In this document: positions 1,201 through 61,649 of the stretch, one piece after another
Layout of the letters: every line of letters begins with the position of its first letter
How positions within the stretch are numbered: the stretch's first letter is position 1
Source: Clostridiales bacterium
Lineage (GTDB): Bacteria; Bacillota; Clostridia; Ch29
DNA length: 64,000 nt
Assembly (NCBI GenBank): GCA_012523075.1
Contig: JAAYJF010000075.1
Span: 21,009 to 85,008 of the forward strand
Direction: 5' to 3'
The notes under the pieces: model-generated
Told to the model about the DNA's origin: nothing
The model's database searches: none
What the model saw: the letters and a program-made list of their open reading frames with translations, nothing else
Made by a program: the position numbers and the translations under genes

Positions 1201-1320
1201 ATATACAATACGCTAATTGTATTGCATTCCTTTACCTGCCATCCCGAAGAAGCGAAGCCAGAAGAATCTGACAGCCGCTTCGCTCAGCATGATGCGTCAG
1301 GAGGTGCAAAGTTTTAAATG
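1201..1320 (+). repeat. Dispersed composite intergenic repeat, copy 1
   Basis: Shares its 5' end (ATACAAYRCGCTAATWGTATTGCATTCCTTTAYCTG), internal CCGAAGAAGCGAAGCC / GAAGAATCTGAC units and its 3' end (..AAAGTTTTAAATG) with copies at 6893, 46001 and 61403 (reverse). Confidence 0.6.
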
Positions 1321-1418
1321 CATTATATATATAATATTTTTATGCTCCGGTAGGAAGGGTGATAACTAATATGTTATAATGTAGAAAAAAGCGCAGACTA
1401 TTCTTTTGGAGTGATAAT

Positions 1419-2447
1419 ATGCAATTCATCAAGGGAAAACCTGGCATAGATATAGAGGATACGCCGGTGGAAAACATTTTTATTGATGCCTTTATGCCGT
1501 CCGCAGAGGGAAACTTTGTAAAGGTATACCTGCTTGGATATAAGTACGCCTGCAGCCGGGACCGCTCATCGGGTTTTTCCAACGAGACCATCGCCCGGGC
1601 GCTGGATATTCCGGTAACAACGGTTTTGAAGGCATGGGATTATTGGGAGAAAAGGGGTATAATCAAAAAACACTACCGGAAAGAAGATAAATCCAACTTC
1701 TCCGTAGAATTCTTAAGCCTTAAACAGCTGTACATAGACAACTACCGTAGCGTATCCGACAACACCCTCGAAGGGTCGAGGGGCGCCTACACCCCCTCGG
1801 ACCTTATGCAGGCCATGGGCGATACAAGAATCAGGGATATGTTCAACGAGGTGCAAAAGATTATATGCCGGCCCTTAACCCCCAGCGAAAGCTTGCAGTG
1901 CCTGGAGTGGCTTTACGATTTAAAGATGGCTCCGGAGATAATAGAGGAAGCCTTCCGGTATTCGGTAGAAAAAAAAGGGGTTAAGAGTATAAGGTATGTA
2001 AACGCCATTATAAGTAGCTGGTACGACAATAACATAAACACGCTGGAGAGGCTTTCCGAGCACCTGGAGGTTACCGACGCCAGGTACAGCCGGTACAATG
2101 CGGTGATGAAGGCTCTGGGAAGACCCAAAAACCCGACAAGAATTGAAAAACAGTATATTGGTAAATGGCTGGATGAATACGCTATGCCAGTGGATGTGAT
2201 ACTGAAAGCCTGCGACAAGGCCGTTATCCAGACACCTAATCCCCCGCTCAATTATGTGGACGGGATAATAACAAAATGGTACAGGGACGGGGTAAAGACC
2301 CTTTCCGATATACCGGATGGGAAAAAAGAACCTAAGCCCCAAAAACGTAAAGGCGTAAGAAATAGATTCCACAACTTTGACCAGCCGGCGCTTAAACTGA
2401 CAAACGAACAGCTCAAGGAAATACTTAACAAACACAGGGATGCTTAG
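1419..2447 (+). CDS. DnaD-domain replication initiation / membrane attachment protein (B. subtilis DnaB-like, two DDBH2-type repeats)
   Basis: 342-aa ORF with a GGAGTGA ribosome-binding site. Two DnaD-like C-terminal repeats (..YVNAIISSWYDNNINTLE.., ..YVDGIITKWYRDGVKTLSD..). Immediately followed by a DnaI-like loader gene. Confidence 0.75.
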   Translation: MQFIKGKPGIDIEDTPVENIFIDAFMPSAEGNFVKVYLLGYKYACSRDRSSGFSNETIARALDIPVTTVLKAWDYWEKRGIIKKHYRKEDKSNFSVEFLSLKQLYIDNYRSVSDNTLEGSRGAYTPSDLMQAMGDTRIRDMFNEVQKIICRPLTPSESLQCLEWLYDLKMAPEIIEEAFRYSVEKKGVKSIRYVNAIISSWYDNNINTLERLSEHLEVTDARYSRYNAVMKALGRPKNPTRIEKQYIGKWLDEYAMPVDVILKACDKAVIQTPNPPLNYVDGIITKWYRDGVKTLSDIPDGKKEPKPQKRKGVRNRFHNFDQPALKLTNEQLKEILNKHRDA

Positions 2448-2458
2448 ATTGTGGGAGA

Positions 2459-3442
2459 GTGTGGTATATGGAAAAAAACATAAACGAAATACTAAGAGAA
2501 TATGAAGCTTTGCAGTCCCGGGCAGAAAAGGAAAAGAAGGAAAGGGCGGAGAAAATCCATCGGAAAATACCGCGGATACGGGAGATTGATGACACCATAA
2601 GCAGGCTAGGCCTTGAGTGCACTTCCTATTCCATAGGCCTTAAACCCTCCGAGCAGAAGGAATACCTGGAGGCCTTTGCCCGGAAGGTGGAGAAGCTTAA
2701 ACATGAAAAAACAGCCCTCCTTAAGGACCACGGCTATCCTCCGGACTATATGGAGATAAAATACCAGTGCCAAAACTGCAGCGATACAGGGTACATAGGG
2801 CAAAAAAAATGCGCCTGTTTTAGACAAAGGCTGATAGACAGGGCATATAATCAATCCAACCTAGGTAGCGTTCTGTCCAGGGAGAACTTTGGAACCTTTG
2901 ATATCAATCTTTTTCCTGATGAAAAATTCCAGGGCCATTCAAAAACACCCAGGCAGAACATGCTGGATATTTTAAGCCGATGCGAGGCCTTTACGCATAA
3001 CTTCGAAAAGGACAACGGCGAAAATCTGCTTTTATACGGTGGTACCGGGCTGGGTAAAACCTTTTTATGCAACTGCATAGCCAAAAAACTGCTGGATAAG
3101 GGAAAAACAGTACTGTACCTTACCGCCTTCAAGCTGTTTAGAATACTGGAGGAATACCGTTTCCGACCAATGGATGCAGCGCCGAATAAGGAGATGCTGG
3201 ATTTTATTTTAACCTGTGACCTTCTAATAATTGACGACCTGGGAACGGAGCTTGCAAACAGCTTTACCAACTCAGAGCTGTTCAACATTATAAACACCCG
3301 GCTTTTAGAGAGGAAAAAAACTATTATTTCCACTAATCTTCAGCCGAATGACCTAATTGATATTTATGGTCAAAGAGTATTCTCAAGAATATCTGCCCGC
3401 TACAGGGCACTGGAGTTTTATGGTCATGACCTGAGGATGTAA
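2459..3442 (+). CDS. dnaI: Primosomal helicase loader DnaI (DnaC/IstB-like AAA+ ATPase)
   Basis: N-terminal Cys4 zinc module (CQNCSDTGYIGQKKCAC). Walker A GGTGLGKT and Walker B LLIIDDLG. GGGAGAGTG ribosome-binding site. Forms an operon-like pair with the upstream DnaD-domain gene. Confidence 0.8.
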   Translation: MWYMEKNINEILREYEALQSRAEKEKKERAEKIHRKIPRIREIDDTISRLGLECTSYSIGLKPSEQKEYLEAFARKVEKLKHEKTALLKDHGYPPDYMEIKYQCQNCSDTGYIGQKKCACFRQRLIDRAYNQSNLGSVLSRENFGTFDINLFPDEKFQGHSKTPRQNMLDILSRCEAFTHNFEKDNGENLLLYGGTGLGKTFLCNCIAKKLLDKGKTVLYLTAFKLFRILEEYRFRPMDAAPNKEMLDFILTCDLLIIDDLGTELANSFTNSELFNIINTRLLERKKTIISTNLQPNDLIDIYGQRVFSRISARYRALEFYGHDLRM

Positions 3443-5464: not shown

Positions 5465-6865
5465 TTAGCGGGCTATTTCCCTTGCCACTATTATTCCAGT
5501 CACCGATGCTTGCATAAGACCCCTTGTTATCCCCGCTCCATCACCTATTGTATACAGGTTCTTAATACCGGTCTGAAACCGGCTGTCAACCTCAACCTTA
5601 CTGCTGTAGAACTTGACTTCGCACCCGTATAGCAACGTGTTCCTAGAATAAAGGTTGGGTGCCAGCTTATCAAAGGCCCGCAACGCCTCCACTATGGAGG
5701 TCAGGTGCCGGTCGGGAAATACGAAGCTTAAATCCCCCGGAACGGCACTTTTTAAAGTGGGTATGGTGGTGGATTTTTTGAGCCTGTCCGGACTGGTTCT
5801 TCTACCCTTAAGCAGGTCCCCCAGCCTTTGGACCATAATGCCTCCCCCCGTCAGCATGTTTGCAAGCTTTGCTATATATTTACCGTATTCTATTGGCTGG
5901 TTAAAGGGCTCTGTGAAGGTGGTGGATACGAGCAGCGCAAAATTGGTATTAGCCGTACGCAAGCCCGGGTCGGAATAGCTGTGGCCGTTTACCACCACAA
6001 GGTCCTCCTCATAGCGTTCCTCCGACACCACTCCTCCGGGATTCATGCAAAAGGTTCTTGCCTTATTCTCAAAGGTGTCGGAGTAATATATAAGCTTTGC
6101 CTCGTAGAGGTCCCGGGTGAGATGGTCCATAACCGAATTGGGGACCTCCACCCTCACGCCAATATCCACCGCATTGTTACTGGTACCGATACCCAGCCGG
6201 TTGGCCTGTTCCGAAAGCCAGTGGGCTCCTCCCCTGCCCGGGGCCACCACCACATGGTTTGCCCCAATCTCCATGGCTTCCCCGTTTTTATGCCTTGCCC
6301 TCACCCCCGTCACCTTGCCCTCCGAAACGGAAATATCCTCAACGGTTGTAAGTTCCCTAAACTCCACTCCCTTGTCCATAAGGTAATCATACATGGCCCT
6401 GAGTACTTGGAAGGCCCTGTCGGTGCCAAGATGCCGGACCGGGCAGGGTACCAGTTTGATACTATGCCTAGACGCCTCATACACCAATTCCTCTACCCTT
6501 TTTTCGTTGAGACCGTGCACCTCCGGCCCTGCGCCAAATTTAAGATAAATATCATCGGCGTATTTTATCAATTCCTCCGCCTGCTCTGCGGATATATAGT
6601 CGGTTATATTGCCGCCCACTTCCGGACTCAGCGAAAGCTTACCGTCGCTGAAGGCCCCCGCTCCGGCCCAGCCGGTTACTATTGAGCACGGATCGCAGTT
6701 TATGCATTTCTTTTCCCGGGCGGGGCACCTTCTAGTGCTTATTCTGCGCCCTTTATCCAGCATGACTATGTCGCTGTTCCCGCGCTCTACCAGTTCCAGG
6801 GCTGTAAATATGCCTGCGGGTCCGGAACCCACAATTATTACATCAAATTTATCCTTAAGCGCCAT
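5465..6865 (-). CDS. FAD-dependent oxidoreductase (COG2509-like NAD(FAD)-utilising dehydrogenase)
   Basis: N-terminal Rossmann motif VIIVGSGPAG; 466 aa; AAGGAGGGG ribosome-binding site. Confidence 0.7.
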   Translation of the reverse strand: MALKDKFDVIIVGSGPAGIFTALELVERGNSDIVMLDKGRRISTRRCPAREKKCINCDPCSIVTGWAGAGAFSDGKLSLSPEVGGNITDYISAEQAEELIKYADDIYLKFGAGPEVHGLNEKRVEELVYEASRHSIKLVPCPVRHLGTDRAFQVLRAMYDYLMDKGVEFRELTTVEDISVSEGKVTGVRARHKNGEAMEIGANHVVVAPGRGGAHWLSEQANRLGIGTSNNAVDIGVRVEVPNSVMDHLTRDLYEAKLIYYSDTFENKARTFCMNPGGVVSEERYEEDLVVVNGHSYSDPGLRTANTNFALLVSTTFTEPFNQPIEYGKYIAKLANMLTGGGIMVQRLGDLLKGRRTSPDRLKKSTTIPTLKSAVPGDLSFVFPDRHLTSIVEALRAFDKLAPNLYSRNTLLYGCEVKFYSSKVEVDSRFQTGIKNLYTIGDGAGITRGLMQASVTGIIVAREIAR

Positions 6866-6892
6866 AGAAGCCCCTCCTTACTCATAAATAAC

Positions 6893-7110
6893 TCACCAAT
6901 AGTGTTACATTTCATTATCTGTCATTCCGAAGAAGAAAGCCCGAAGAATCCGACTTTGTCGTTCTGAACGCAGTGAAGAATCTTACACTTTCAACAACCT
7001 GAAGGTCCTTCGTTTCACTCAGGATGACAGGCATTATGCAAGGTCCTTCGCTTCGCAAGATCCTTCGCTTCGCTCAGGATGACAGCTGCTGCACTCAGCA
7101 TGACAACCAT
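6893..7110 (+). repeat. Dispersed composite intergenic repeat, copy 2 (contains several GTCATYC...GAAGRATC units in both orientations)
   Basis: Begins CACCAATAGTGTTACATTTCATTATCTGTCATTCCGAAGAAGAAAGCCCGAAGAATCCGAC, then runs through GATCCTTCGCTTCGCTCAGGATGACAG units. Homologous to the 1201, 46001 and 61403 copies. Confidence 0.6.
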
Positions 7111-7141: not shown

Positions 7142-7348
7142 CTATTCCTTTTCGAAGTATTCGTTTAGATCCTCCAAAAGGTCGTCGGCGTTTATACCGT
7201 GGACGGCACTGGCCTCCTCGATGCTTTCCCCTGAAGAGGCAGGGCATCCGATACAGTGCATACCGTGCTTCATGAATACTGAAGCGGCGCCCCTGTCCAT
7301 CATCAGCACTTGGGCAATAGTCATATCCTTGGTTACTTTTTTCGACAT
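7142..7348 (-). CDS. DUF1858-domain small redox protein (hybrid-cluster-protein-associated redox disulfide family)
   Basis: 68 aa with a CIGC motif, MSKKVTKDMTIAQVL..GMHCIGCPAS..; GGAGGGAACCCC ribosome-binding-site-like sequence upstream. Confidence 0.6.
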   Translation of the reverse strand: MSKKVTKDMTIAQVLMMDRGAASVFMKHGMHCIGCPASSGESIEEASAVHGINADDLLEDLNEYFEKE

Positions 7349-7452
7349 TGGGGTTCCCTCCTTTTAATTATTAGCATTACCATTATTGTTAATATTACTA
7401 TCCCTCTAAAGCCGTTTCCAAACAAAAACTGGGCATGCTTTACGGTTTTATG

Positions 7453-7501
7453 TTATCCACACCCGATGTAAAACTATCCACAATTATCCACACTGTCCAC
7501 A
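7453..7501. promoter_or_regulatory. DnaA-box cluster outside oriC (four boxes in the same orientation)
   Basis: TTATCCACA at ~7453, CTATCCACA at ~7474, TTATCCACA at ~7484 and CTGTCCACA at ~7493, head to tail. The cluster lies between the dnaB (helicase) stop and the DUF1858 gene start. Confidence 0.7.
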
Positions 7502-7532
7502 GAGATATGCACAAACACACATTCTTATTTCG

Positions 7533-8867
7533 CTAATTTTCCTCAAGTTTCGCCATGTCCGCAAACTTTGTATACTTATCCAGCCATACCAGCTCCACCA
7601 TGCCGGTGGGACCGTTCCTCTGCTTTGCCAGTATTATTTCGGCGATTCCCTTTTTCTCTGTATCGGCGTTATAGTATTCATCCCTGTAAAGGAACATCAC
7701 CACATCGGCATCCTGCTCTATGGCACCGGATTCCCTTAAATCGGACAGCATCGGTCGGTGCTCTGAGCGCATTTCCGGTGCCCTGCTAAGCTGTGACATG
7801 GCCAGAACCGGGCAATCCATCTCCCTGGCCAGGGCTTTGAGCGACCTGGAAATTTCAGATATTTCCTGTTGTCTGCTTTCCGACCGTCCGCCTCCCTGCA
7901 TAAGTTGAAGGTAATCTATAAGTATCAGCTCAAGGCCTCTTTCCAGCTTAAGCCTTCTGCACTTGGAACGCATCTCCGCCACCGTTATCCCCGGCGTATC
8001 GTCTATATAGATGTTCGCCTCCGAAAGCCTGCTCACTGCAGCGGCAAGCCTTGGCCAGTCATCGTCTCCGAGGTTCCCGGTACGAAGCCTGTGGCTGTCA
8101 ATATTTGCTTCGGCACAAATCATACGGTTTACCAGCTGCTCCTTGGACATCTCAAGGCTGAATATCGCCACCGAAACCTTGGCTTTCAGGGCAGCGTACT
8201 GGGCAATATTTAGCGCAAAGGCGGTCTTTCCCATAGAAGGCCTTGCGGCCACCAGTACCAAATCACTTCTTTGCAGCCCGGAGGTCTTGCTATCAATATC
8301 CGCAAAGCCGGTGGGAACCCCTGTTAGCCTGCCCTTTGTATTGTACAGCTCCTCTATTCTGTTGAAACTGGAAACAAGTATATCCTTAAGGGGAATAAAT
8401 CCCTTGGAGGTCCGCTTCTGGGAGATGTCGAATATCCCCTTCTCGGCAAACTCTATTATCTCTGCAGCTTCCTTCGCCGCCTGGTAGCTCATATCAGAAA
8501 TTTCTCCGCAGGCCTTTATTAACCTTCTTAGCAGAGCCTTTTCCTGAATAATCCTAGCGTAATGGTCCACGTTGGCTATGGTGGGTACGCTGGAGGACAT
8601 ATCGGTCAAAAATGCCACACCGCCGACGGCTTCGAGGGTGTTCCTCTGCCTTAACTGCTCCGAAAGGGTTACAAGGTCAACGGGCTCCCCTTTGTCAAAA
8701 AGCTGCATTACAGCCTCATAGACTTCCCTATGGCTGTCCTTGTAAAAGTCCTCCGGTTTAATATATTCGGAAGCAGTTATTATAGCCTCCCGGTCTAACA
8801 GCATCGCGCCCAAAACCGACTGCTCGGCTTCGATGCTGTGGGGAGGTATTTTGCCTATCGACTGCAT
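7533..8867 (-). CDS. dnaB: Replicative DNA helicase DnaB (B. subtilis DnaC)
   Basis: N-terminal IEAEQSVLGAML, Walker A RPSMGKTAF, RecA-like C-terminal domain. The track ORF uses TTG at 8894. The ATG at MQSIGK.. (~8867), 16 nt after the Lon-like stop, is the more likely start. Confidence 0.9.
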   Translation of the reverse strand: MQSIGKIPPHSIEAEQSVLGAMLLDREAIITASEYIKPEDFYKDSHREVYEAVMQLFDKGEPVDLVTLSEQLRQRNTLEAVGGVAFLTDMSSSVPTIANVDHYARIIQEKALLRRLIKACGEISDMSYQAAKEAAEIIEFAEKGIFDISQKRTSKGFIPLKDILVSSFNRIEELYNTKGRLTGVPTGFADIDSKTSGLQRSDLVLVAARPSMGKTAFALNIAQYAALKAKVSVAIFSLEMSKEQLVNRMICAEANIDSHRLRTGNLGDDDWPRLAAAVSRLSEANIYIDDTPGITVAEMRSKCRRLKLERGLELILIDYLQLMQGGGRSESRQQEISEISRSLKALAREMDCPVLAMSQLSRAPEMRSEHRPMLSDLRESGAIEQDADVVMFLYRDEYYNADTEKKGIAEIILAKQRNGPTGMVELVWLDKYTKFADMAKLEEN

Positions 8868-8883
8868 TTTCTCCACCACCCGT

Positions 8884-10791
8884 TTATTCGGCAAAGAGTA
8901 TCTCCAGCACCTCTTCCGCCCTTTTCACTGCGTGAACTTCAATCCCTGAAAGGTCGGCAGGCACTTCCTTCGAGTTCTTTGCAGGAATTATTATCGCCGA
9001 CATATCGTTTTGCTTTGCACCGTATATCTTTTCGATTATTCCTCCCACCGGCTTTATTTCTCCCTGTATGGAAATCTCCCCCGTCACCGCTATGTCCTGC
9101 CTTACGGGCCTTTGGGTAATTGCGCTGGCAAGGGCACTAAAAATGGCTACCCCCGCCGAGGGCCCGTCCACCCTTCCCCCGCCGATACAGTTGACGTGAA
9201 CATCATAATCGCTTACAATTTCGCCGGAAATTTTCCTTATTACAGCCGCTGCGTTAAACACCGAATCCCTTGTCATGGAACCTGCGGCATCATTAATTCT
9301 TATGGTCCCCTCTCCCTTTTTGAGCGCCGGAAAGGCTATAGCCTCTATCTCCAGTACCGAGCCTATGTATCCCGCCACTCCCAGGGCCAGCACCCTGCCA
9401 ACCCTTGAATGAATCTTATCGGTAAATCTTACGCAGGGAGCAAGCCGGCTGTTCTGAATAACGGTGTATATGTCGCTGCGTCTTATGCGCACTTCTTGAG
9501 GGGCGCAGTTTTGCTCGGCAATCGCAATATTATACGCATCCGCCAAAATATTGACAGCTTTCCGCCCTTCTATTGTATACTGACTTATAATCTCAGCGCA
9601 ACCCTTTTCAATTTGTACCCCCAGTTTATTAACCGCATTATTTATTATTATTACAATATCCGCAGGGGTCAGGGGGTCGAAGAATACCTCGGTACACCTT
9701 GAGCGAAACGCTGGGTTTATGCTTTCTGGCTGCCGGGTTGTGGCTCCTATCAGTATGAAATCCGCCGGCGCCCCCTCCTCAAAGAGCTTACGTATATAAA
9801 GGGGTATATTTTTGTTGGACGCATCGTAATATATGGACTCAAAGCTAATTCTTTTATCCTCCAGCACCTTCAGCAGTTTATTCTGTAAAACGGGGTCCAT
9901 CTCACCAATTTCATCAATAAACAGTATTCCCCCGTGGGCCTGGGTCACAAGCCCTATCTTTGGTTCAGGGATGCCGGTATCCGACAGTTCCTTGTTGCTT
10001 CCCTGGTATATGGGGTCGTGCACCGACCCAAGAAGGGGATTGGCTATTCCCCTGGAATCCCACCTCAGTGTTGTGCCGTCCACCTCTATAAAGCTGGAAT
10101 CCTCTGTAAAGGGTGAATACTCCTTTATCTTTGCCACTTTCAGTGCCAGCCGTGCCGCAGAGGTTTTCCCGACGCCGGGGGGGCCATAAAGCAGCACATG
10201 CTGGGGATAGGGAGAACCAATCTTTGCCAGCAGGGCCTTTATAGCTCTTTGCTGCCCTACTATCTCGTCAACGGTCGAAGGCCTCAGCACCTCCATTATG
10301 GACTTGCCCAGGCTTCTTTTCTCCAGCTTCTGGAGATTGGCATATTTTTTAAGCGTGGTTGGATTCTCCGGCCCCGAGTGTTTTTTAATAATAGCCAGCT
10401 TAAGCTCCTCCATGTATTGGGCCTGACGCTGCTGTATCCTGTCCTGGAGTTCCTTGTTGATTTTTTCTCTAACCACCCTTTCGGCCAGCATATCGGTAAT
10501 CCTGGTGCGCAGTTCCTGCACCACAGCCATACAGTCCTCCGGCTGGGGAGGTTCGGCTTCCGGACCCAGCACAATTTTTTGTAAGGCATGGATTTTAACT
10601 ACTACATCGTCCTCTTGCAAATCCTGTTCCAGCCCAAAATCCCTTACCCTTTCGTTGTAAGCCTTGACACCCATACTGTCTATGAGCATTTCCCCGAGAA
10701 CAGACACCTGTCTTTCCAACATCCTTCTATCCGGTTTATGCTCGGAACCGGCTGGCTTTGCTAAGTATTTTTCTGCGTTTACCTCCAACAT
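8884..10791 (-). CDS. Lon-family ATP-dependent protease (LonB/LonC-like: AAA+ ATPase plus S16 peptidase domain, no N-terminal LON domain)
   Basis: Walker A GPPGVGKTS; Lon catalytic serine motif VDGPSAG and the downstream lysine (..EKIYGAKQ..). 635 aa. Sits between rplI and dnaB. Confidence 0.8.
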   Translation of the reverse strand: MLEVNAEKYLAKPAGSEHKPDRRMLERQVSVLGEMLIDSMGVKAYNERVRDFGLEQDLQEDDVVVKIHALQKIVLGPEAEPPQPEDCMAVVQELRTRITDMLAERVVREKINKELQDRIQQRQAQYMEELKLAIIKKHSGPENPTTLKKYANLQKLEKRSLGKSIMEVLRPSTVDEIVGQQRAIKALLAKIGSPYPQHVLLYGPPGVGKTSAARLALKVAKIKEYSPFTEDSSFIEVDGTTLRWDSRGIANPLLGSVHDPIYQGSNKELSDTGIPEPKIGLVTQAHGGILFIDEIGEMDPVLQNKLLKVLEDKRISFESIYYDASNKNIPLYIRKLFEEGAPADFILIGATTRQPESINPAFRSRCTEVFFDPLTPADIVIIINNAVNKLGVQIEKGCAEIISQYTIEGRKAVNILADAYNIAIAEQNCAPQEVRIRRSDIYTVIQNSRLAPCVRFTDKIHSRVGRVLALGVAGYIGSVLEIEAIAFPALKKGEGTIRINDAAGSMTRDSVFNAAAVIRKISGEIVSDYDVHVNCIGGGRVDGPSAGVAIFSALASAITQRPVRQDIAVTGEISIQGEIKPVGGIIEKIYGAKQNDMSAIIIPAKNSKEVPADLSGIEVHAVKRAEEVLEILFAE

Positions 10792-32862: not shown

Positions 32863-34254
32863 CTACTTGCCTATGCAAAAGTCTGCAAATATCCTGTCTA
32901 CAATTTCCTCGGTTATGTTGTCTCCGGTTATTTCTCCAAGGGCTTCAAGGGCCGCCTTTATATCTATCGAAACAAGGTCGACGGGAAGACCGCCCTTCAT
33001 AGCCCTTATAGCATCCCCAAGGCTTCTTTTGGCCCTCTTGAGACAGTCCTCGTGCCTTACCCTGGTAACCATAACCGCATCACTGCTTCTTATGCCGTCC
33101 GAAAATACCAAATTATATATGGTGTCCTCCAAGGCATCCAACCCTCTATCCTGTACAAGGGACATATGTATTACCGGCCATTCCGGGTACCTATCGGTAA
33201 TCTCCCGTTCGTCCAGCCTTATTTCCAAATCAGTTTTGTTTATTAACACTATCGACCTTTTATCCTTAATGATATCCAGTATTGCCCTGTCCTCCTTTGA
33301 TAGGGGTCTTGCGGCGTCCAGCACCAGCAGCACCAAATCGGCATTTTCCATATATACCCTGGTCTTTTCAACTCCTATGCTTTCCACCAAATCATCGGTT
33401 TCCCTTAGACCCGCAGTATCCATTAACCTTAGCGGAATACCCTTTAAGTTTATGTATTCCTCTATCACATCCCTTGTAGTCCCCGGCACTTCGGTGACTA
33501 TCGCCCTGTTCTCCCTAAGCAGTGCATTAAGCAGGGAGGATTTACCCACGTTGGGCTTTCCGATTATTACGGTTTTAAGGCCCTCCCGTACTATCCTGCC
33601 CCCGGAGGACGTGGCCAGCAGCCTTTCCACCATATCCACCGCCTGCCGGGTATCCTCCAGCAGCGTCTCCCTGGTCTGCTCCTCTATGTCATGCTCGGGG
33701 AAATCTATCGAAGCCTCCACCCCGGCCATTATCGACAGCAGTTTATCCTTTATCTCATCCAAATACCGGGACAACCCGCCTTCTAGCTGACTTACGGCAG
33801 TTTTTAAGCCCATGTCGGATTTTGAATGGATTATATCCATAACCGCCTCGGCCTGGGACAGGTCTATCCTACCGTTCAAAAAAGCCCTTTTGGTAAATTC
33901 CCCCGGCTCTGCCACCCTTGCTCCCGCCTCAACAATTAACTCCAGTATGTTTCTTACCGCGGCGTTTCCACCGTGACAGTGAATCTCCACAACGTCCTCC
34001 CTTGTATACGTATACGGTGCTTTCATTGCAACCACAAAAACCTCGTCAATTGTTTCCCCGTCGTCGGGATTAGTAATATGGCCATAGTTCATCCTTCTGT
34101 CCGGCAGTTGCTCCAGCGATTTGCCGGATACCGATCTGAAGACCCGGGCCGCTATGCTTATCGCACAGAGGCCGCTTATGCGCACTATCCCAATGCCGCT
34201 CTCCCCCGGGGCAGTGGCTATTGCGGTAATTGTATCTTCTTCCCTTATTACCAT
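32863..34254 (-). CDS. mnmE: tRNA modification GTPase MnmE (TrmE)
   Basis: G-domain [12 protein letters not shown]; C-terminal CIGK; 463 aa. Confidence 0.97.
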
Positions 34255-34480
34255 GGAACATCACCTCTAAAGTATTATACCACTTCCATTATTGCCATAA
34301 ACTACTGCAATTCTCTTTTTAAAGGCAGCCCCTCCAATTCTTTAGGAGAGGCCATTATCCAAAAGTCTAGCGCTACTTATCTCTCGCTTACACCAGTAGT
34401 TCCAGCATTGCATCTTTTACCATGTGTAGAAATACTAAGTAGCGAACATAAACGGGAGGCTTAGTGATGATTAGTCATCG

Positions 34481-34511
34481 TAAATATTTAAAGCAGGTGC
34501 ATGGCACCTGC
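34481..34511 (-). terminator. Rho-independent terminator after jag
   Basis: On the minus strand: GCAGGUGC CAU GCACCUGC followed by UUUAAAUAUUUA. Confidence 0.5.
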
Positions 34512-34522
34512 TCACAGTCAAT

Positions 34523-35155
34523 TTATTTTAGGCTTACTATTACCTTTCTGTACGGTTCTTCCCCTTCGCTGTGAGTTGTAACCCTGTCATTGCCCTGCAG
34601 TGCAGAATGGATTATCCTTCTTTCGTAGGGGTTCATGGGCTCTAAGGCTATATCCTTGCCTATCCTTACCGCCTTATATGCTATGTTCTTTGCCAACTTT
34701 ATCAGCGTTTCCTCTCTCTTTTTCCTGTAGTTCTCGGTGTCCACAATAACACGGTAGTAATGCTCCGGGTATTTCCTGTTAACCACAAGACCCGTTATGT
34801 ATTGTATCGAATCCAGGGTCTGTCCTCTTCTGCCTATTAGAACTCCCATGTTGTGACCCTTGAATTCCGCCCGTATAATGCTTCCTTCTTCCTCCTCCAC
34901 CGTTACCCTGCCTTCTACTCCCATTACATCCAGTAGCTCTTCGAGGAATTCCCTTGCCACATCGGAAGGCGTTGCTTTCAGTGTAACCCTAACCCTTGCC
35001 GGTTTATTATTTATAAGGCCCAGCAGGCCCTTTCCCGGCTCCTCAAGGATATCAATCTTAACATCACCTAAGTCAACACCCAGTTCATCTATAGCCAACT
35101 GAACCGCTTCCTGAATGGTCTTGCCCGTTTTTTCAACAGATTTTTCCATCGTCAA
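34523..35155 (-). CDS. jag: Jag/KhpB RNA-binding protein (KH plus R3H domains)
   Basis: 210 aa; C-terminal R3H ..RRIIHSALQGNDRVTTHSEGEEPYRKVIV.. Confidence 0.9.
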   Translation of the reverse strand: MTMEKSVEKTGKTIQEAVQLAIDELGVDLGDVKIDILEEPGKGLLGLINNKPARVRVTLKATPSDVAREFLEELLDVMGVEGRVTVEEEEGSIIRAEFKGHNMGVLIGRRGQTLDSIQYITGLVVNRKYPEHYYRVIVDTENYRKKREETLIKLAKNIAYKAVRIGKDIALEPMNPYERRIIHSALQGNDRVTTHSEGEEPYRKVIVSLK

Positions 35156-37100: not shown

Positions 37101-38444
37101 ATGGAGAACGACACGACATCCGTTTGGGAAGAAACTTTGACGCTAATAAAGGACGAACTTGCGGAAGTAAGTTTCAATACATGGTTCAAAGTTATCCAAT
37201 TGGTTGAAACAACCAATGAAAAAATAGTACTTTGTGCCCCTAACGAATTTATTAAAAACATTCTCGAAACCCGATACATAACGCTTATTTTCAATGCCCT
37301 AGAACAGGTAACCTCCAAACAGTACGATATAAGCATTATACTGCCAGAGGAAAGGGATTCCAAAACCCAGGGCGGTGGCAGAAATAAACAAAACGATGAG
37401 AGGGATTCGCTCACTTCCGATTTGGGTATATTAAATCCAAAATATACCTTCGACACCTTTGTTATTGGAAACAGCAACCGGTTTGCCCACGCTGCTTCTC
37501 TGGCGGTATCCGAGGCACCCGCAAAGTCCTACAACCCGCTTTTTATATACGGAGGGGTTGGACTGGGCAAAACCCATCTTATGCATGCCATAGGGCACTA
37601 CATACTAAGAACCAATCCAAGGACCCGGGTTTTGTATACAACCTCGGAAAAGTTTACAAACGACCTTATCAATTCCATAAGGGATGATAAGAACGTTGAG
37701 TTCAGAAACAGGTACAGGACCACCGATGTTCTGCTTGTGGACGATATACAGTTTATAGCCGACAAGGAAAGGACCCAGGAGGAGTTTTTTCATACCTTTA
37801 ATTCGTTGTACGAGTCCAGCAAGCAGATAATAATCTCCAGCGACCGGCCCCCTAAGGAAATACCCACGCTGGAGGACAGGCTTAGGTCAAGGTTTGAATG
37901 GGGCCTTATTTGCGATATTCAGCCCCCGGACTTTGAGACCCGTATAGCCATACTAAAGAAAAAAGCCAGGCTGGAGAATATATCCACCCCCGATGAGGTG
38001 CTTGTGTTTATTGCAAAAAAAATAGAATCAAATATCCGGGAGCTGGAAGGTGCCCTCATAAGGGTTGTTGCATATTCCTCCCTTACAAACAGGGAAATAA
38101 ATATGGACCTTACCCAGGAAGCCCTTAAGGATTTCTTCTCTAATTCCAAGCCAAAGCCAGTGACGGTGGATTTGATAAAGCGGGTCATATCCGAATATTA
38201 TTCTATAAGGATAGAAGACTTCAAATCTAGAAAACGCACCCGGGCCATTGCATTCCCACGACAGGTAGCCATGTACCTGGCCAGGGAACTGACCGACCTT
38301 TCACTGCCCAAAATTGGGGAGGAATTCGGCGGAAGGGACCACACAACAGTACTGCACGCCTACGATAAGATTTCAACCGAGCTTAAAAGGGATGAATCCC
38401 TTAAAATAGCAATGGGTGAAATACAAAAAAGGCTAAACGGTTAG
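37101..38444 (+). CDS. dnaA: Chromosomal replication initiator protein DnaA
   Basis: Walker [11 protein letters not shown]; DnaA signature; C-terminal HTH; 447 aa; AAGGAGG ribosome-binding site. Confidence 0.98.
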
Positions 38445-38525: not shown

Positions 38526-38670
38526 TGTGGAAAATCATACACCGATTAATAACAATCGGTTAACAGACGGTACTGTTCCTCCTGCTACAGTCCGGTCTCT
38601 TTTCCACATATCAACACCCCCTACTACTATTACTACTATATTTTTATATATTTATATAATAAAAACTTGG
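38526..38670. promoter_or_regulatory. oriC: oriC part 2: DnaA boxes plus an AT-rich DNA unwinding element between dnaA and dnaN
   Basis: TTTTCCACA (reverse complement, ~38526) and TTTTCCACA (~38600). The 40-bp AT tract ACTATATTTTTATATATTTATATAATAAAAA ends at the dnaN ribosome-binding site. Confidence 0.7.
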
Positions 38671-43531: not shown

Positions 43532-45955
43532 ATGACAGAGAAAAAGGACAATATTATCACGATAGACATACAACAGGAAATGAAAAAATCCTATATAGAT
43601 TATGCCATGAGCGTTATAGTAAGCAGAGCCCTCCCCGATGTAAGGGACGGCTTAAAACCGGTGCACCGGAGAATACTGTATGCTATGAGTGAACTGGGCC
43701 TTACTCCGGACAAACCCCACCGAAAATCCGCCCGGATAGTTGGGGATGTACTCGGTAAGTACCATCCCCATGGGGATACCGCTGTTTATGATGCAATGGT
43801 GAGGATGGCCCAAGACTTTTCAACAAGGCAGCCCCTTGTGGACGGGCACGGTAACTTTGGTTCCGTTGACGGGGACAGCGCCGCTGCCATGCGTTATACC
43901 GAAGCAAGAATGGCCAAAATAACCCTCGAGATGCTGAGGGATATAAACAAGGACACGGTGGACTTTATACCCAACTTTGACGAATCCTTGAAGGAACCAG
44001 CGGTTCTGCCATCCAGATTTCCTAATATACTGGTTAACGGAGCGTCGGGTATAGCGGTTGGTATGGCTACCAGCATACCTCCCCACAACCTGGGAGAGGT
44101 AATAGATGGTGTGATAAGGCTTATAGATTACCCTGATATTGGTATAAAGGACCTTACAAAGGTAATTAAGGGGCCGGATTTCCCTACTGGAGCAACCATA
44201 ATGGGTAAGAACGCAATAAGGGAAGCCTATGCCACCGGAAGGGGAAGGGTGACGGTACGGGCCAAGGCTACCATAGAGGCCTCATCGGGCAACCGGCACA
44301 GGATAATAGTCACCGAGATTCCCTACCAGGTCAACAAATCCAGAGTCATCGAAAGGATAGCCCAACTGGTTAGGGATAAAAAGATAGAAGGTATTTCGGA
44401 TATCCGGGATGAAACCGACAGAAAGGGCATGCGTATAGTAATTGAACTTAAAAGGGACGTAAACCCCCAGGTGGTGCTTAACCTGCTTTATAAGCATACC
44501 CAGTTGCAGGATACCTTCAGTATAATTATGATAGCCCTTGTGGATGGACAGCCCAGGGTTCTTAATCTAAAGGAAATACTGGAATACTACCTGGCCCACC
44601 AGAAGGATGTGGTGCGCAAAAGGACCATATACGACCTAAACAAGGCGGAGGAAAGGGCCCATATACTGGAGGGCCTTCGAATTGCCTTGGACAATATAGA
44701 CAGGGTTATTGCAATAATAAGGGGTTCCAAAACCGACCAGATAGCCAGGGACGGCCTTATGAAAGAGTTTGGCCTTTCGGAAAAACAGGCCCAGGCCATA
44801 CTGGATATGAGGCTTCGAAGGCTCACTGGGCTGGAACGGGATAAGATAGACGAGGAATATAATGAACTTCTTGAAAAAATCAGATATTATAAGGAAGTGC
44901 TGGAGAAGGAAGAGCTTTTGGAATCTATAATAAAGGAAGAAATGCTACAAATAAAGGCAAAGTTTGGCGATCTAAGGAGAACTAGTATAGCACCGGATGC
45001 CAAGGAATTCGATATAGAGGACCTTATTGAGGAACAGGAGGTGGCAGTAACCCTTACCCATTTCGGTTATATAAAAAGGGTGCCCGCCGAAACTTATCGC
45101 AGCCAGAGGCGGGGCGGAAGGGGAGTAACTGCGCTAACCACCAAAACCGAGGACTTTGTGGCGGAAATATTTACTACCTCCACGCACAGTTTCATTTTGT
45201 TTTTCACCAATCGGGGGAGGGTGTACCGGCTAAAGGCCTACGAGATTCCTGAGGCGGGAAGGCATGCAAGAGGTACCGCCATAGTAAATCTACTACAGCT
45301 TTCAGGCAATGAAACCATCACCGCTGTTATTCCCATAAGGGAAGTTGAAGAGGAAAAATTTATGCTATTTGCAACCAGGCGAGGCATGGTAAAGAAAACA
45401 CCCTTAAACGAATACGCTTCCAACAGGAAACACGGGCTTCAGGCCATAGACTTGCTGGACGGGGACGAGCTGATAGGTGTAAAGCTTACCACAGGCAGCG
45501 ATCATGTATTATTGGCTACTAAAAAGGGTTATTCAATAAGGTTTAGCGAGAAAGACGTAAGAAGCATGGGCAGATATACCCGGGGAGTTAGGGGTATAGC
45601 CCTTGGCGGCGATGACCAGGTGGTGGGGATGGAATTGGTAAGGGAGGGCGCAGACCTTCTAATCGTTACCGTAAAGGGTTTTGGAAAGAGAACAGAGCTG
45701 GAGGAATACGGGCTGCAAAAAAGAGGCGGCAAAGGGCTAAAGACCTATAGGATAACCCGTAAGACAGGAGACATTGTAGGCATAAAAGTGGTGGACGAGC
45801 ACAACGATATAATGCTTATCACCAAAAAGGGTGTAGTAATAAGGCTTAATGTTAACGAAATCTCAAGGATGGGAAGAATTACCCAGGGTGTAACCCTTAT
45901 GAAGTTTGATAAGGACCAGACGGTGGTATCCATCGCCAGAATTGAAAAGGACTAA
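43532..45955 (+). CDS. gyrA: DNA gyrase subunit A
   Basis: Catalytic region [10 protein letters not shown]; GyrA box; 807 aa. Confidence 0.98.
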
Positions 45956-45990: not shown

Positions 45991-46000
45991 CTATTCTTAA

Positions 46001-46188
46001 TATACAACGCACTAATAGTATTGCATTCCTTTATCTGTAATTCTGAAGAAGCGAAGCCCGAAGAACCCGGCTCTGTCATTGTGAACGTAGTGAAGAATCC
46101 GACGCCGTCGCTTAAGAGGGCGAAGCCCGAAGAATCTGACTACCGTTACGCTGGAGATGATACACTAGAAGATGTAAAGTTTTAAATG
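46001..46188 (+). repeat. Dispersed composite intergenic repeat, copy 3
   Basis: TATACAACGCACTAATAGTATTGCATTCCTTTATCTGTAATTCTGAAGAAGCGAAGCCCGAAGAAC ... GGCGAAGCCCGAAGAATCTGAC ... GATGTAAAGTTTTAAATG. Collinear with copy 1. Confidence 0.6.
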
Positions 46189-61369: not shown

Positions 61370-61402
61370 TCTCCTCCTAAAGGAAGCTATATATAACGCG
61401 AT

Positions 61403-61572
61403 AAAGACTTTACATCTTTTAGCGTGTCATCCTGAGCGCAGCGAAGGATCTTATGCCTGGTTGTAAAAAGATTCTTCGGGCTCCGCCCTCAGAATGACAG
61501 GGTAGGATTCTTCGGGCTTCGCCAACTTAAATGACAAGTAAAGCAATGTAATATTATTAATACTTTGTATAT
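61403..61572 (-). repeat. Dispersed composite intergenic repeat, copy 4 (reverse orientation)
   Basis: GTCATCCTGAGCGCAGCGAAGGATC ... GATTCTTCGGGCTCCGCCCTCAGAATGAC ... GATTCTTCGGGCTTCGCC ... AATGTAATATTATTAATACTTTGTATAT. Its reverse complement matches the termini of copies 1 and 3. Confidence 0.6.
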
Positions 61573-61649
61573 AGCAAGCCAAAGCACAGTATTGCCCGTT
61601 GATAGTGGGTATAGTATTTATTATACTGCTCCAGGCATGGGAGACCGGG

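Follow-up and report, generated by a model that had tools for sequence, protein, structure and literature searches.

A conserved cluster of DnaA boxes outside oriC, between dnaB and a DUF1858 gene, in a clade of Clostridia

The window, as we call the whole 64,000-nucleotide stretch of DNA analysed here, belongs to an uncultured organism known from metagenome contigs only. In it the replicative helicase gene dnaB, which has lonC, rplI, gdpP and a DUF2232 gene upstream, is followed by a DUF1858 gene, a gene for an FAD-dependent oxidoreductase and a MatE gene. The DUF1858 protein is 68 amino acids long, carries a CIGC motif and scores 91.8 bits against TIGR03980, for which the cut-off is 44.95. 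Five DnaA boxes, all in the same orientation, lie head to tail within 61 nt (7453-7513, forward strand), bounded by the stop codon of dnaB (7533-7535) on one side and the start of the DUF1858 gene (7348) on the other, with start-to-start spacings of 21, 10, 9 and 12 nt. The genes and boxes are as follows:

7533-8894, reverse strand: dnaB, replicative helicase gene (Pfam DnaB_C, E = 2e-116; DnaB, E = 6e-37), stop codon TAG at 7535-7533
7505-7513, forward strand: DnaA box 5, ATATGCACA, one mismatch to TTATNCACA, matrix p = 2e-4, the box nearest dnaB
7493-7501, forward strand: DnaA box 1, CTGTCCACA, matrix p = 1.4e-4
7484-7492, forward strand: DnaA box 2, TTATCCACA, perfect consensus, matrix p = 4e-6
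7474-7482, forward strand: DnaA box 3, CTATCCACA, matrix p = 5e-5
7453-7461, forward strand: DnaA box 4, TTATCCACA, perfect consensus, the box nearest the promoter and the least conserved
7142-7348, reverse strand: gene for a DUF1858 / hybrid-cluster-protein-associated redox disulfide domain (PF08984, E = 3e-19)
5465-6865, reverse strand: FAD-dependent oxidoreductase gene (Pfam FAD-depend_C)
37101-38444, forward strand: dnaA (Pfam Bac_DnaA and Bac_DnaA_C), encoding the trans-acting factor expected to bind the array

The first-pass annotation of this DNA had described four boxes head to tail in 50 bp. These four are present with the letters it gave, and the fifth, at 7505-7513, had been overlooked. 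Its placement of the cluster about 30 kb from dnaA, between the dnaB stop and the DUF1858 gene, agrees with the genes found here, the distance being 29.6 kb.

The dnaA product matches the 446-residue DnaA of PDB 8btg, which we take to be the B. subtilis protein, with E = 1.4e-180, and the DNA-binding domains of the two are nearly identical. The domain IV motifs afpRq, lPkig, grDHTtv and lHa are all retained; their R, P, D-H-T and H residues are presumably the ones that contact bases, as in the E. coli domain IV–DNA structure. Since domain IV is near-identical to that of PDB 8btg, and since consensus boxes flank the organism’s own dnaA, a DnaA matrix from B. subtilis should apply to this protein. 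The one we used is the experimentally derived IDAP-seq matrix (S3 Table of PMC4447404), and regions were scored as the sum of -log10 p in 200 nt, as defined in the same paper.

The window holds 32 boxes with at most one mismatch, against 15.1 ± 3.4 expected. Three such boxes lie inside 40 nt of the array, and three or more in 50 bp occurred in 0 of 300 Markov-1 random 64-kb sequences. A matrix scan for DnaA boxes had been proposed as a check on the cluster; run on the 64-kb window, it places the array region (7341-7540) above all others, with a summed score of 29.2. The two halves of oriC score 22.4 (the dnaA-dnaN spacer) and 13.1 (upstream of dnaA), and the best region in each of 200 random sequences scores 13.2 on average and 19.7 at most. 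Chance is excluded as the source of the box cluster. The second peak outside oriC, at 43771-43970 within the ORF 43532-45955, was set aside, as it consists of weak boxes only and its score equals the random maximum. Tandem Repeats Finder reported nothing on the array, and a tandem-repeat origin was rejected. The array was also considered as a copy of oriC or of a mobile element, and this was rejected too: a blastn-short comparison of the intergenic region with the window returned matches of 9-11 nt only.

The real origin is readily recognized elsewhere in the window. GC skew stays below zero between 4 kb and about 38 kb and is positive further on, with its minimum at 37-38 kb and no sign change at 7.4 kb, and the dnaA-dnaN spacer holds an unwinding module at 38600-38665, composed of boxes, a GC cluster, DnaA-trios and an AT-rich unwinding element:

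38600-38608 and 38608-38616: abutting DnaA boxes of oriC, TTTTCCACA and ATATCAACA
38617-38621: GC cluster, CCCCC
38622-38639: six DnaA-trios, TACTACTATTACTACTAT
after the trios, to about 38665: AT-rich stretch

The trio string is identical to that reported for C. difficile oriC2 (PMC7561715). Neither flank of the array, read on both sides, has a GC cluster, a DnaA-trio run or an adjacent AT-rich unwinding element, so the array could not open DNA, and a blastn-short comparison found no similarity between the array and oriC beyond the 9-mers. The array is not a chromosomal replication origin, and the first-pass annotation was right to put the cluster outside oriC, with the skew minimum and the unwinding module at 37-38.7 kb and the array at 7.45 kb.

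Relatives of this locus were collected by a DnaB-based scan, keeping one genome per species, which gave nine loci (L001-L009; DnaB identity 81-94%), all from metagenome-assembled Clostridia. All nine have two to four boxes with at most one mismatch; these begin 32-41 nt beyond the dnaB stop, and most share the orientation seen in the window. A tenth relative, L067 (DnaB 78%), retains boxes 5, 1 and 2 and has lost box 3. Offset and spacing of the array are thus the same in 11 species-level lineages, and boxes 5, 1, 2 and 3 align with zero indels. Mean pairwise identities across the region are:

dnaB, last codons: 0.74
7514-7532, the 19-nt spacer from the dnaB stop to box 5: 0.85
Box 5: 0.94 (10 lineages), varying at position 5 only, where G or A corresponds to the N of TTATNCACA
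Box 1: 0.82, varying at positions 1-3 only, with TCCACA invariant
Box 2: 0.96 (10 lineages)
Box 3: 0.78, varying at positions 1, 2, 3, 5 and 6
Box 4: 0.72, degraded to TTGTCCAAA or TTATCAACA in several relatives, with position-8 changes in some
7452-7411, the adjoining intergenic stretch: 0.43
dnaB, four-fold degenerate sites, the neutral benchmark: 0.40

Because the boxes are 0.72-0.96 identical while the adjoining DNA stands at 0.43 and the four-fold sites at 0.40, we infer that the array is kept by selection for DnaA binding. The pattern of change is the signature expected of such selection: in boxes 5, 1, 2 and 3 the substitutions fall at positions that the matrix tolerates (1-3, 5 and 6), and positions 4 and 7-9 are invariant. 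A lack of conservation in related genomes had been named beforehand as what would speak against the site; what we find is an array present in 11 lineages next to intergenic DNA that is saturated with change. Ten contigs of the same species as the window are identical over the intergenic region and are therefore uninformative on polymorphism. L008 (JAXGPT010000011.1) was left out of the codon analysis; its dnaB, lonC, rplI and FAD genes have apparent frameshifts, which are probably assembly errors. The conservation of the spacer at 7514-7532 extends beyond the DnaA boxes, as the matrix scan finds no significant box in it, and a second factor may be involved.

Relatives at intermediate distance, taken from a protein search, show the locus as it is without the boxes. 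L064 (DnaB 76%) and L065 (77%) have the window’s gene order, lonC-dnaB-DUF1858-FAD, with an intergenic region of only 84-112 nt between dnaB and DUF1858 that contains zero DnaA boxes, and a neighbour-joining tree of DnaB places the two as sister to the box-bearing clade. The FAD gene always pairs with the DUF1858 gene in relatives, and the synteny extends through L001-L009, L064 and L065. More distant loci differ in gene order, and none has the array:

L066 and L068: dnaB convergent with the helicase-loader genes
L069: dnaB-tilS
L012: dnaB-GNAT-DUF1858

Comparison with these loci also helps to place the promoter of the DUF1858-FAD operon, for which we relied on consensus matching and on alignment with relatives:

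7389-7421, reverse strand: putative sigma-A promoter of the DUF1858-FAD operon, -35 TTGGAA at 7421-7416, -10 TAATAT/TATTAA at 7397-7389

The counterparts of this putative promoter in the alignment read TTGATT or TTGAAA, then 18 nt, then TATAAT at the box-less loci L064 and L065; those of L009 and L067 read TTGAAT-18-TATAAT. The consensus scan offers an overlapping alternative, TTTAGA-17-AATAAT, at 7410-7382. Under either placement, the centres of the five boxes would fall between about -72 and -124, and the array would precede the predicted core promoter without overlapping it. On the opposite strand, a weak promoter-like match (TCGACA-18-AATTAT, 7342-7371) points through the array into dnaB antisense; it matches the consensus at 9 of 12 positions only.

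Since L064 and L065 share the gene order and the promoter, lack the boxes and fall outside the box-bearing clade, the array is a lineage-specific gain. The simplest history is a single event in which about 100 nt entered the DNA that separates the dnaB stop from the existing DUF1858-FAD promoter, upstream of its -35 element, and were retained afterwards in at least 11 species-level lineages. The inserted segment has TGTTTG at each edge (7517-7512 and 7424-7419), and the pair could be a duplication footprint, weak sites for filament extension, or the site of another protein. Given the box-less DUF1858 loci L012, L064 and L065, DnaA control is not intrinsic to DUF1858 genes. Nor is the cluster a general property of dnaB 3′ ends, since about 20 other Firmicute dnaB loci have none, Tepidibacter (L010) excepted. 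A three-box group within rplI of C. tyrobutyricum was put down to chance, since its mismatches fall at critical positions.

The exception, in Tepidibacter thalassicus (L010, 5393-5426), is an independent cluster of three boxes, ATATCCACA, TTATCCACA and, on the opposite strand, TTATCAACA. It lies 61-94 nt after the dnaB stop, differs in orientation and lies upstream of an HD-GYP gene, and it may be a convergent use of the dnaB 3′ location. A metagenome scan for the exact triple-box pattern found 8 contigs only, 4 of them from the window’s clade and 2 with the pattern upstream of dnaN elsewhere; the scan gave no new context for the element. The latter two contigs (L076, at about 7452-7478, and L077, at 1280-1306) come from an unrelated metagenomic organism, and the triple arrangement with its 9- and 10-nt spacing lies about 360 nt upstream of a dnaN homologue.

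The DNA between dnaB and DUF1858 offers no sign of an RNA element. We found no intrinsic terminator on the reverse strand and no stable RNA fold in this intergenic region (fold z-score +0.91 relative to shuffled sequences), and its sole Rfam match has E = 0.35, well below threshold; on these three results, an RNA element or terminator downstream of dnaB was ruled out. As neither an intrinsic terminator nor a stable fold follows dnaB, read-through from the dnaB operon is plausible.

Taken together, these observations are best explained if the array is a selectively maintained, high-affinity DnaA site outside oriC that tunes local transcription and/or buffers DnaA, a reading that we hold to be likely. 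Its basic step is very likely to be the cooperative binding of ATP-DnaA: five boxes of the same orientation, spaced 9-12 nt apart with one interval of 21 nt, would be occupied by a short DnaA oligomer. Bound 30-110 nt upstream of the -35 element, DnaA could tune the DUF1858-FAD promoter, and/or it could stop RNA polymerase that reads on past the dnaB operon, which has no terminator; by either route, expression of the redox gene pair would follow DnaA activity. The array would also enlarge the free-DnaA buffer, a role proposed for the DnaA-box clusters (DBCs) of B. subtilis, and at 30 kb from oriC it would be duplicated very soon after initiation. Its effect may be local, global or both, and sequence alone cannot decide between these roles. 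The first-pass annotation suggested that the cluster may place the DUF1858 gene under DnaA control. We too put this forward as a hypothesis, and note that a transcriptional role is not required, since the boxes lie off the predicted core promoter and the sister lineages run the gene from the shared promoter without boxes.

The array might instead act purely as a transcription-factor site, through DnaA-dependent activation of the DUF1858-FAD operon or as a barrier to read-through into it, with no role in initiation; we find this conceivable though on the whole doubtful. It would suit the position of the array directly upstream of the operon promoter, the lack of a terminator between dnaB and DUF1858, and the finding that most B. 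subtilis clusters regulate the neighbouring gene (PMC3245932; PMC8203912). It would also suit the crown group, where a 3-4-nt insertion has shifted the ancestral -35 element from its place in L009, L067, L064 and L065, a change of the sort that takeover by an activator would produce. However, the DUF1858 homologues near dnaB in L064, L065 and L012 are box-less, and L001 has kept its boxes despite an extra repeat copy of about 190 bp that parts the DUF1858 promoter region from the gene. Moreover, conservation is highest in the boxes that adjoin dnaB, at the far end from the promoter, and lowest in box 4, which is nearest to it. This gradient and the retention of the boxes in L001 speak slightly against a role centred on the promoter alone. 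The converse idea, that the array is purely a sink or inactivation site for DnaA, like datA or DBC[yydA-yycS], selected for its nearness to oriC and indifferent to its neighbours, seems to us rather unlikely. The distance of 30 kb from oriC, a gain independent of the pre-existing promoter and the independent three-box cluster of Tepidibacter, in the same place after dnaB with another gene downstream, all fit it, but five boxes are a small DnaA sink, and in B. subtilis any one cluster has weak effects.

Readings in which the boxes do something else, or nothing, fare worse. That the array is a functionless repeat produced by chance or slippage, or the site of some other protein recognizing TGTGGATAA-like direct repeats, is very improbable: boxes 1-3 are indeed near-tandem repeats of 9-10 nt that slippage might have produced, and the conserved spacer hints at another factor, yet the boxes are 0.78-0.96 identical where neutral sites are saturated at 0.40, their substitutions mirror the DnaA matrix, Tandem Repeats Finder comes back empty, and the matches are to the full 9-nt DnaA consensus that also flanks dnaA here. 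It is extremely hard to credit that the array is an additional or relic origin of replication, or that helicase is loaded there, beside the helicase gene. Neither flank carries a GC cluster, a DnaA-trio run or an AT-rich unwinding element, GC skew changes sign at 37-38 kb and not at 7.4 kb, a complete unwinding module is already present at 38600-38665, similarity to oriC is limited to 9-mers, and the sister lineages have no array; these points outweigh what might recommend such an origin, namely the densest strong boxes of the window, the triple-box architecture shared with the dnaN-upstream sites of L076 and L077, and helicase and helicase-loader genes nearby.

We can also sketch a more ambitious version of the favoured reading, that of a DnaA site tuning transcription and/or buffering DnaA, though we think it quite unlikely to hold in full. 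The array would be a newly evolved replication-control element, datable to one node of the tree, in which a DnaA-ATP sink doubles as a roadblock at the 3′ end of the helicase operon. There it would insulate or terminate dnaB transcription, tie the redox pair to the initiation cycle and exert feedback on when initiation occurs. If this were true, the dnaB 3′ end would, given the independent Tepidibacter cluster, be a place where such elements have arisen repeatedly and convergently in Clostridia.

Local and global roles both have parallels in B. subtilis (PMC3245932; PMC13220808). That organism has six clusters outside oriC, mostly near it and upstream of different genes in different species; most of them regulate the neighbouring gene, two of the six measurably restrain initiation, and single deletions are nearly silent (PMC3245932). 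Like these DBCs, the array groups consensus DnaA boxes in an intergenic region of a Firmicute, near oriC and beside a promoter, with no unwinding element, and the gene that it precedes is lineage-specific, as Okumura et al. describe for Bacillus species (PMC3245932). At the level of sequence it belongs with the B. subtilis-type clusters, being clustered above chance and located outside oriC. It differs from them in being smaller and more regular (five co-oriented boxes in 61 nt), in its host, a member of the Clostridia, and in flanking dnaB and DUF1858, which none of the six does. The first-pass annotation’s comparison with the yydA-type site of B. subtilis consequently stands as an analogy (a cluster that is intergenic and outside but near oriC) and falls as orthology, because the array has other neighbours and was gained recently and independently. 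Cluster positions are in fact not conserved between B. subtilis and the window’s group: the thdF-jag (trmE-jag) spacer holds one of the six B. subtilis clusters, whereas the corresponding spacer in the window (34255-34522, between the ORFs 32863-34254 and 34523-35155, taken as trmE and jag by gene order) has one weak DnaA box only and no equivalent cluster. Okumura et al. could not identify features that distinguish the functional clusters (PMC3245932).

E. coli datA likewise groups about five DnaA boxes near oriC without being an origin, and it is believed to reduce the pool of initiation-competent DnaA once initiation has taken place. It requires IHF and promotes hydrolysis of DnaA-bound ATP (reviewed in PMC13220808). 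In architecture and sequence datA and the array are unrelated. DnaA-regulated promoters (sda, dnaA, ywlC and yydA in B. subtilis; dnaA and nrdAB in E. coli) resemble the array in having boxes beside a sigma-A-type promoter, and at the activated sda promoter the boxes lie upstream, a layout like that of the array. The candidate targets here are different in kind, a redox pair without a known link to replication. No common rule ties the position of boxes to activation or repression by DnaA (PMC8203912). With the box arrays of oriC the array shares closely packed, co-oriented boxes, and its exact triple arrangement recurs upstream of dnaN in another organism, but it has none of the GC cluster, trios and unwinding element of the basal unwinding system.

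In the open-access literature we found Clostridia DnaA-box clusters described only within oriC, with no non-oriC cluster among them, and no report of DnaA control of DUF1858. The array adds one more example to a known kind of site and does not define a new kind; it would extend the concept to Clostridia and leaves the picture of DnaA action unchanged. Work on DnaA-box clusters away from the origin has centred on E. coli and B. subtilis; how widely they are spread, how they are born and what they require in order to function form a wider question, and for this the locus is a natural experiment: box-bearing and box-less sisters have the same genes and promoter, the gain is resolved on the tree, and the footprint of selection can be read at single boxes. 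The paired loci are ready-made constructs for comparisons of binding, transcription and initiation.

The window also shows the wider gene order around the array. A DnaD-domain protein (1419-2447, forward strand) and a DnaI/DnaC-like helicase-loader ATPase (2459-3442, forward strand) are encoded convergently with dnaB, 4-6 kb from it, and the same two loader genes directly abut dnaB in the outgroup loci L066 and L068, so that the DUF1858-FAD-MatE block separates the helicase and loader genes in the window’s lineage. The repeat seen in L001 belongs to a family of about 200 bp that resembles a miniature transposable element, is intergenic and has the core CCTGAGCGAAGCGAAGGATC. Its copies are:

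Window, about 1246-1336, reverse strand
Window, about 6877-7105, reverse strand
Window, about 46000-46183, reverse strand
Window, about 61386-61574, forward strand
L001, 5495-5700 and 6000-6220, one of the two with 49-nt imperfect inverted ends

One of the window’s copies sits between the DUF1858 gene and the FAD gene.
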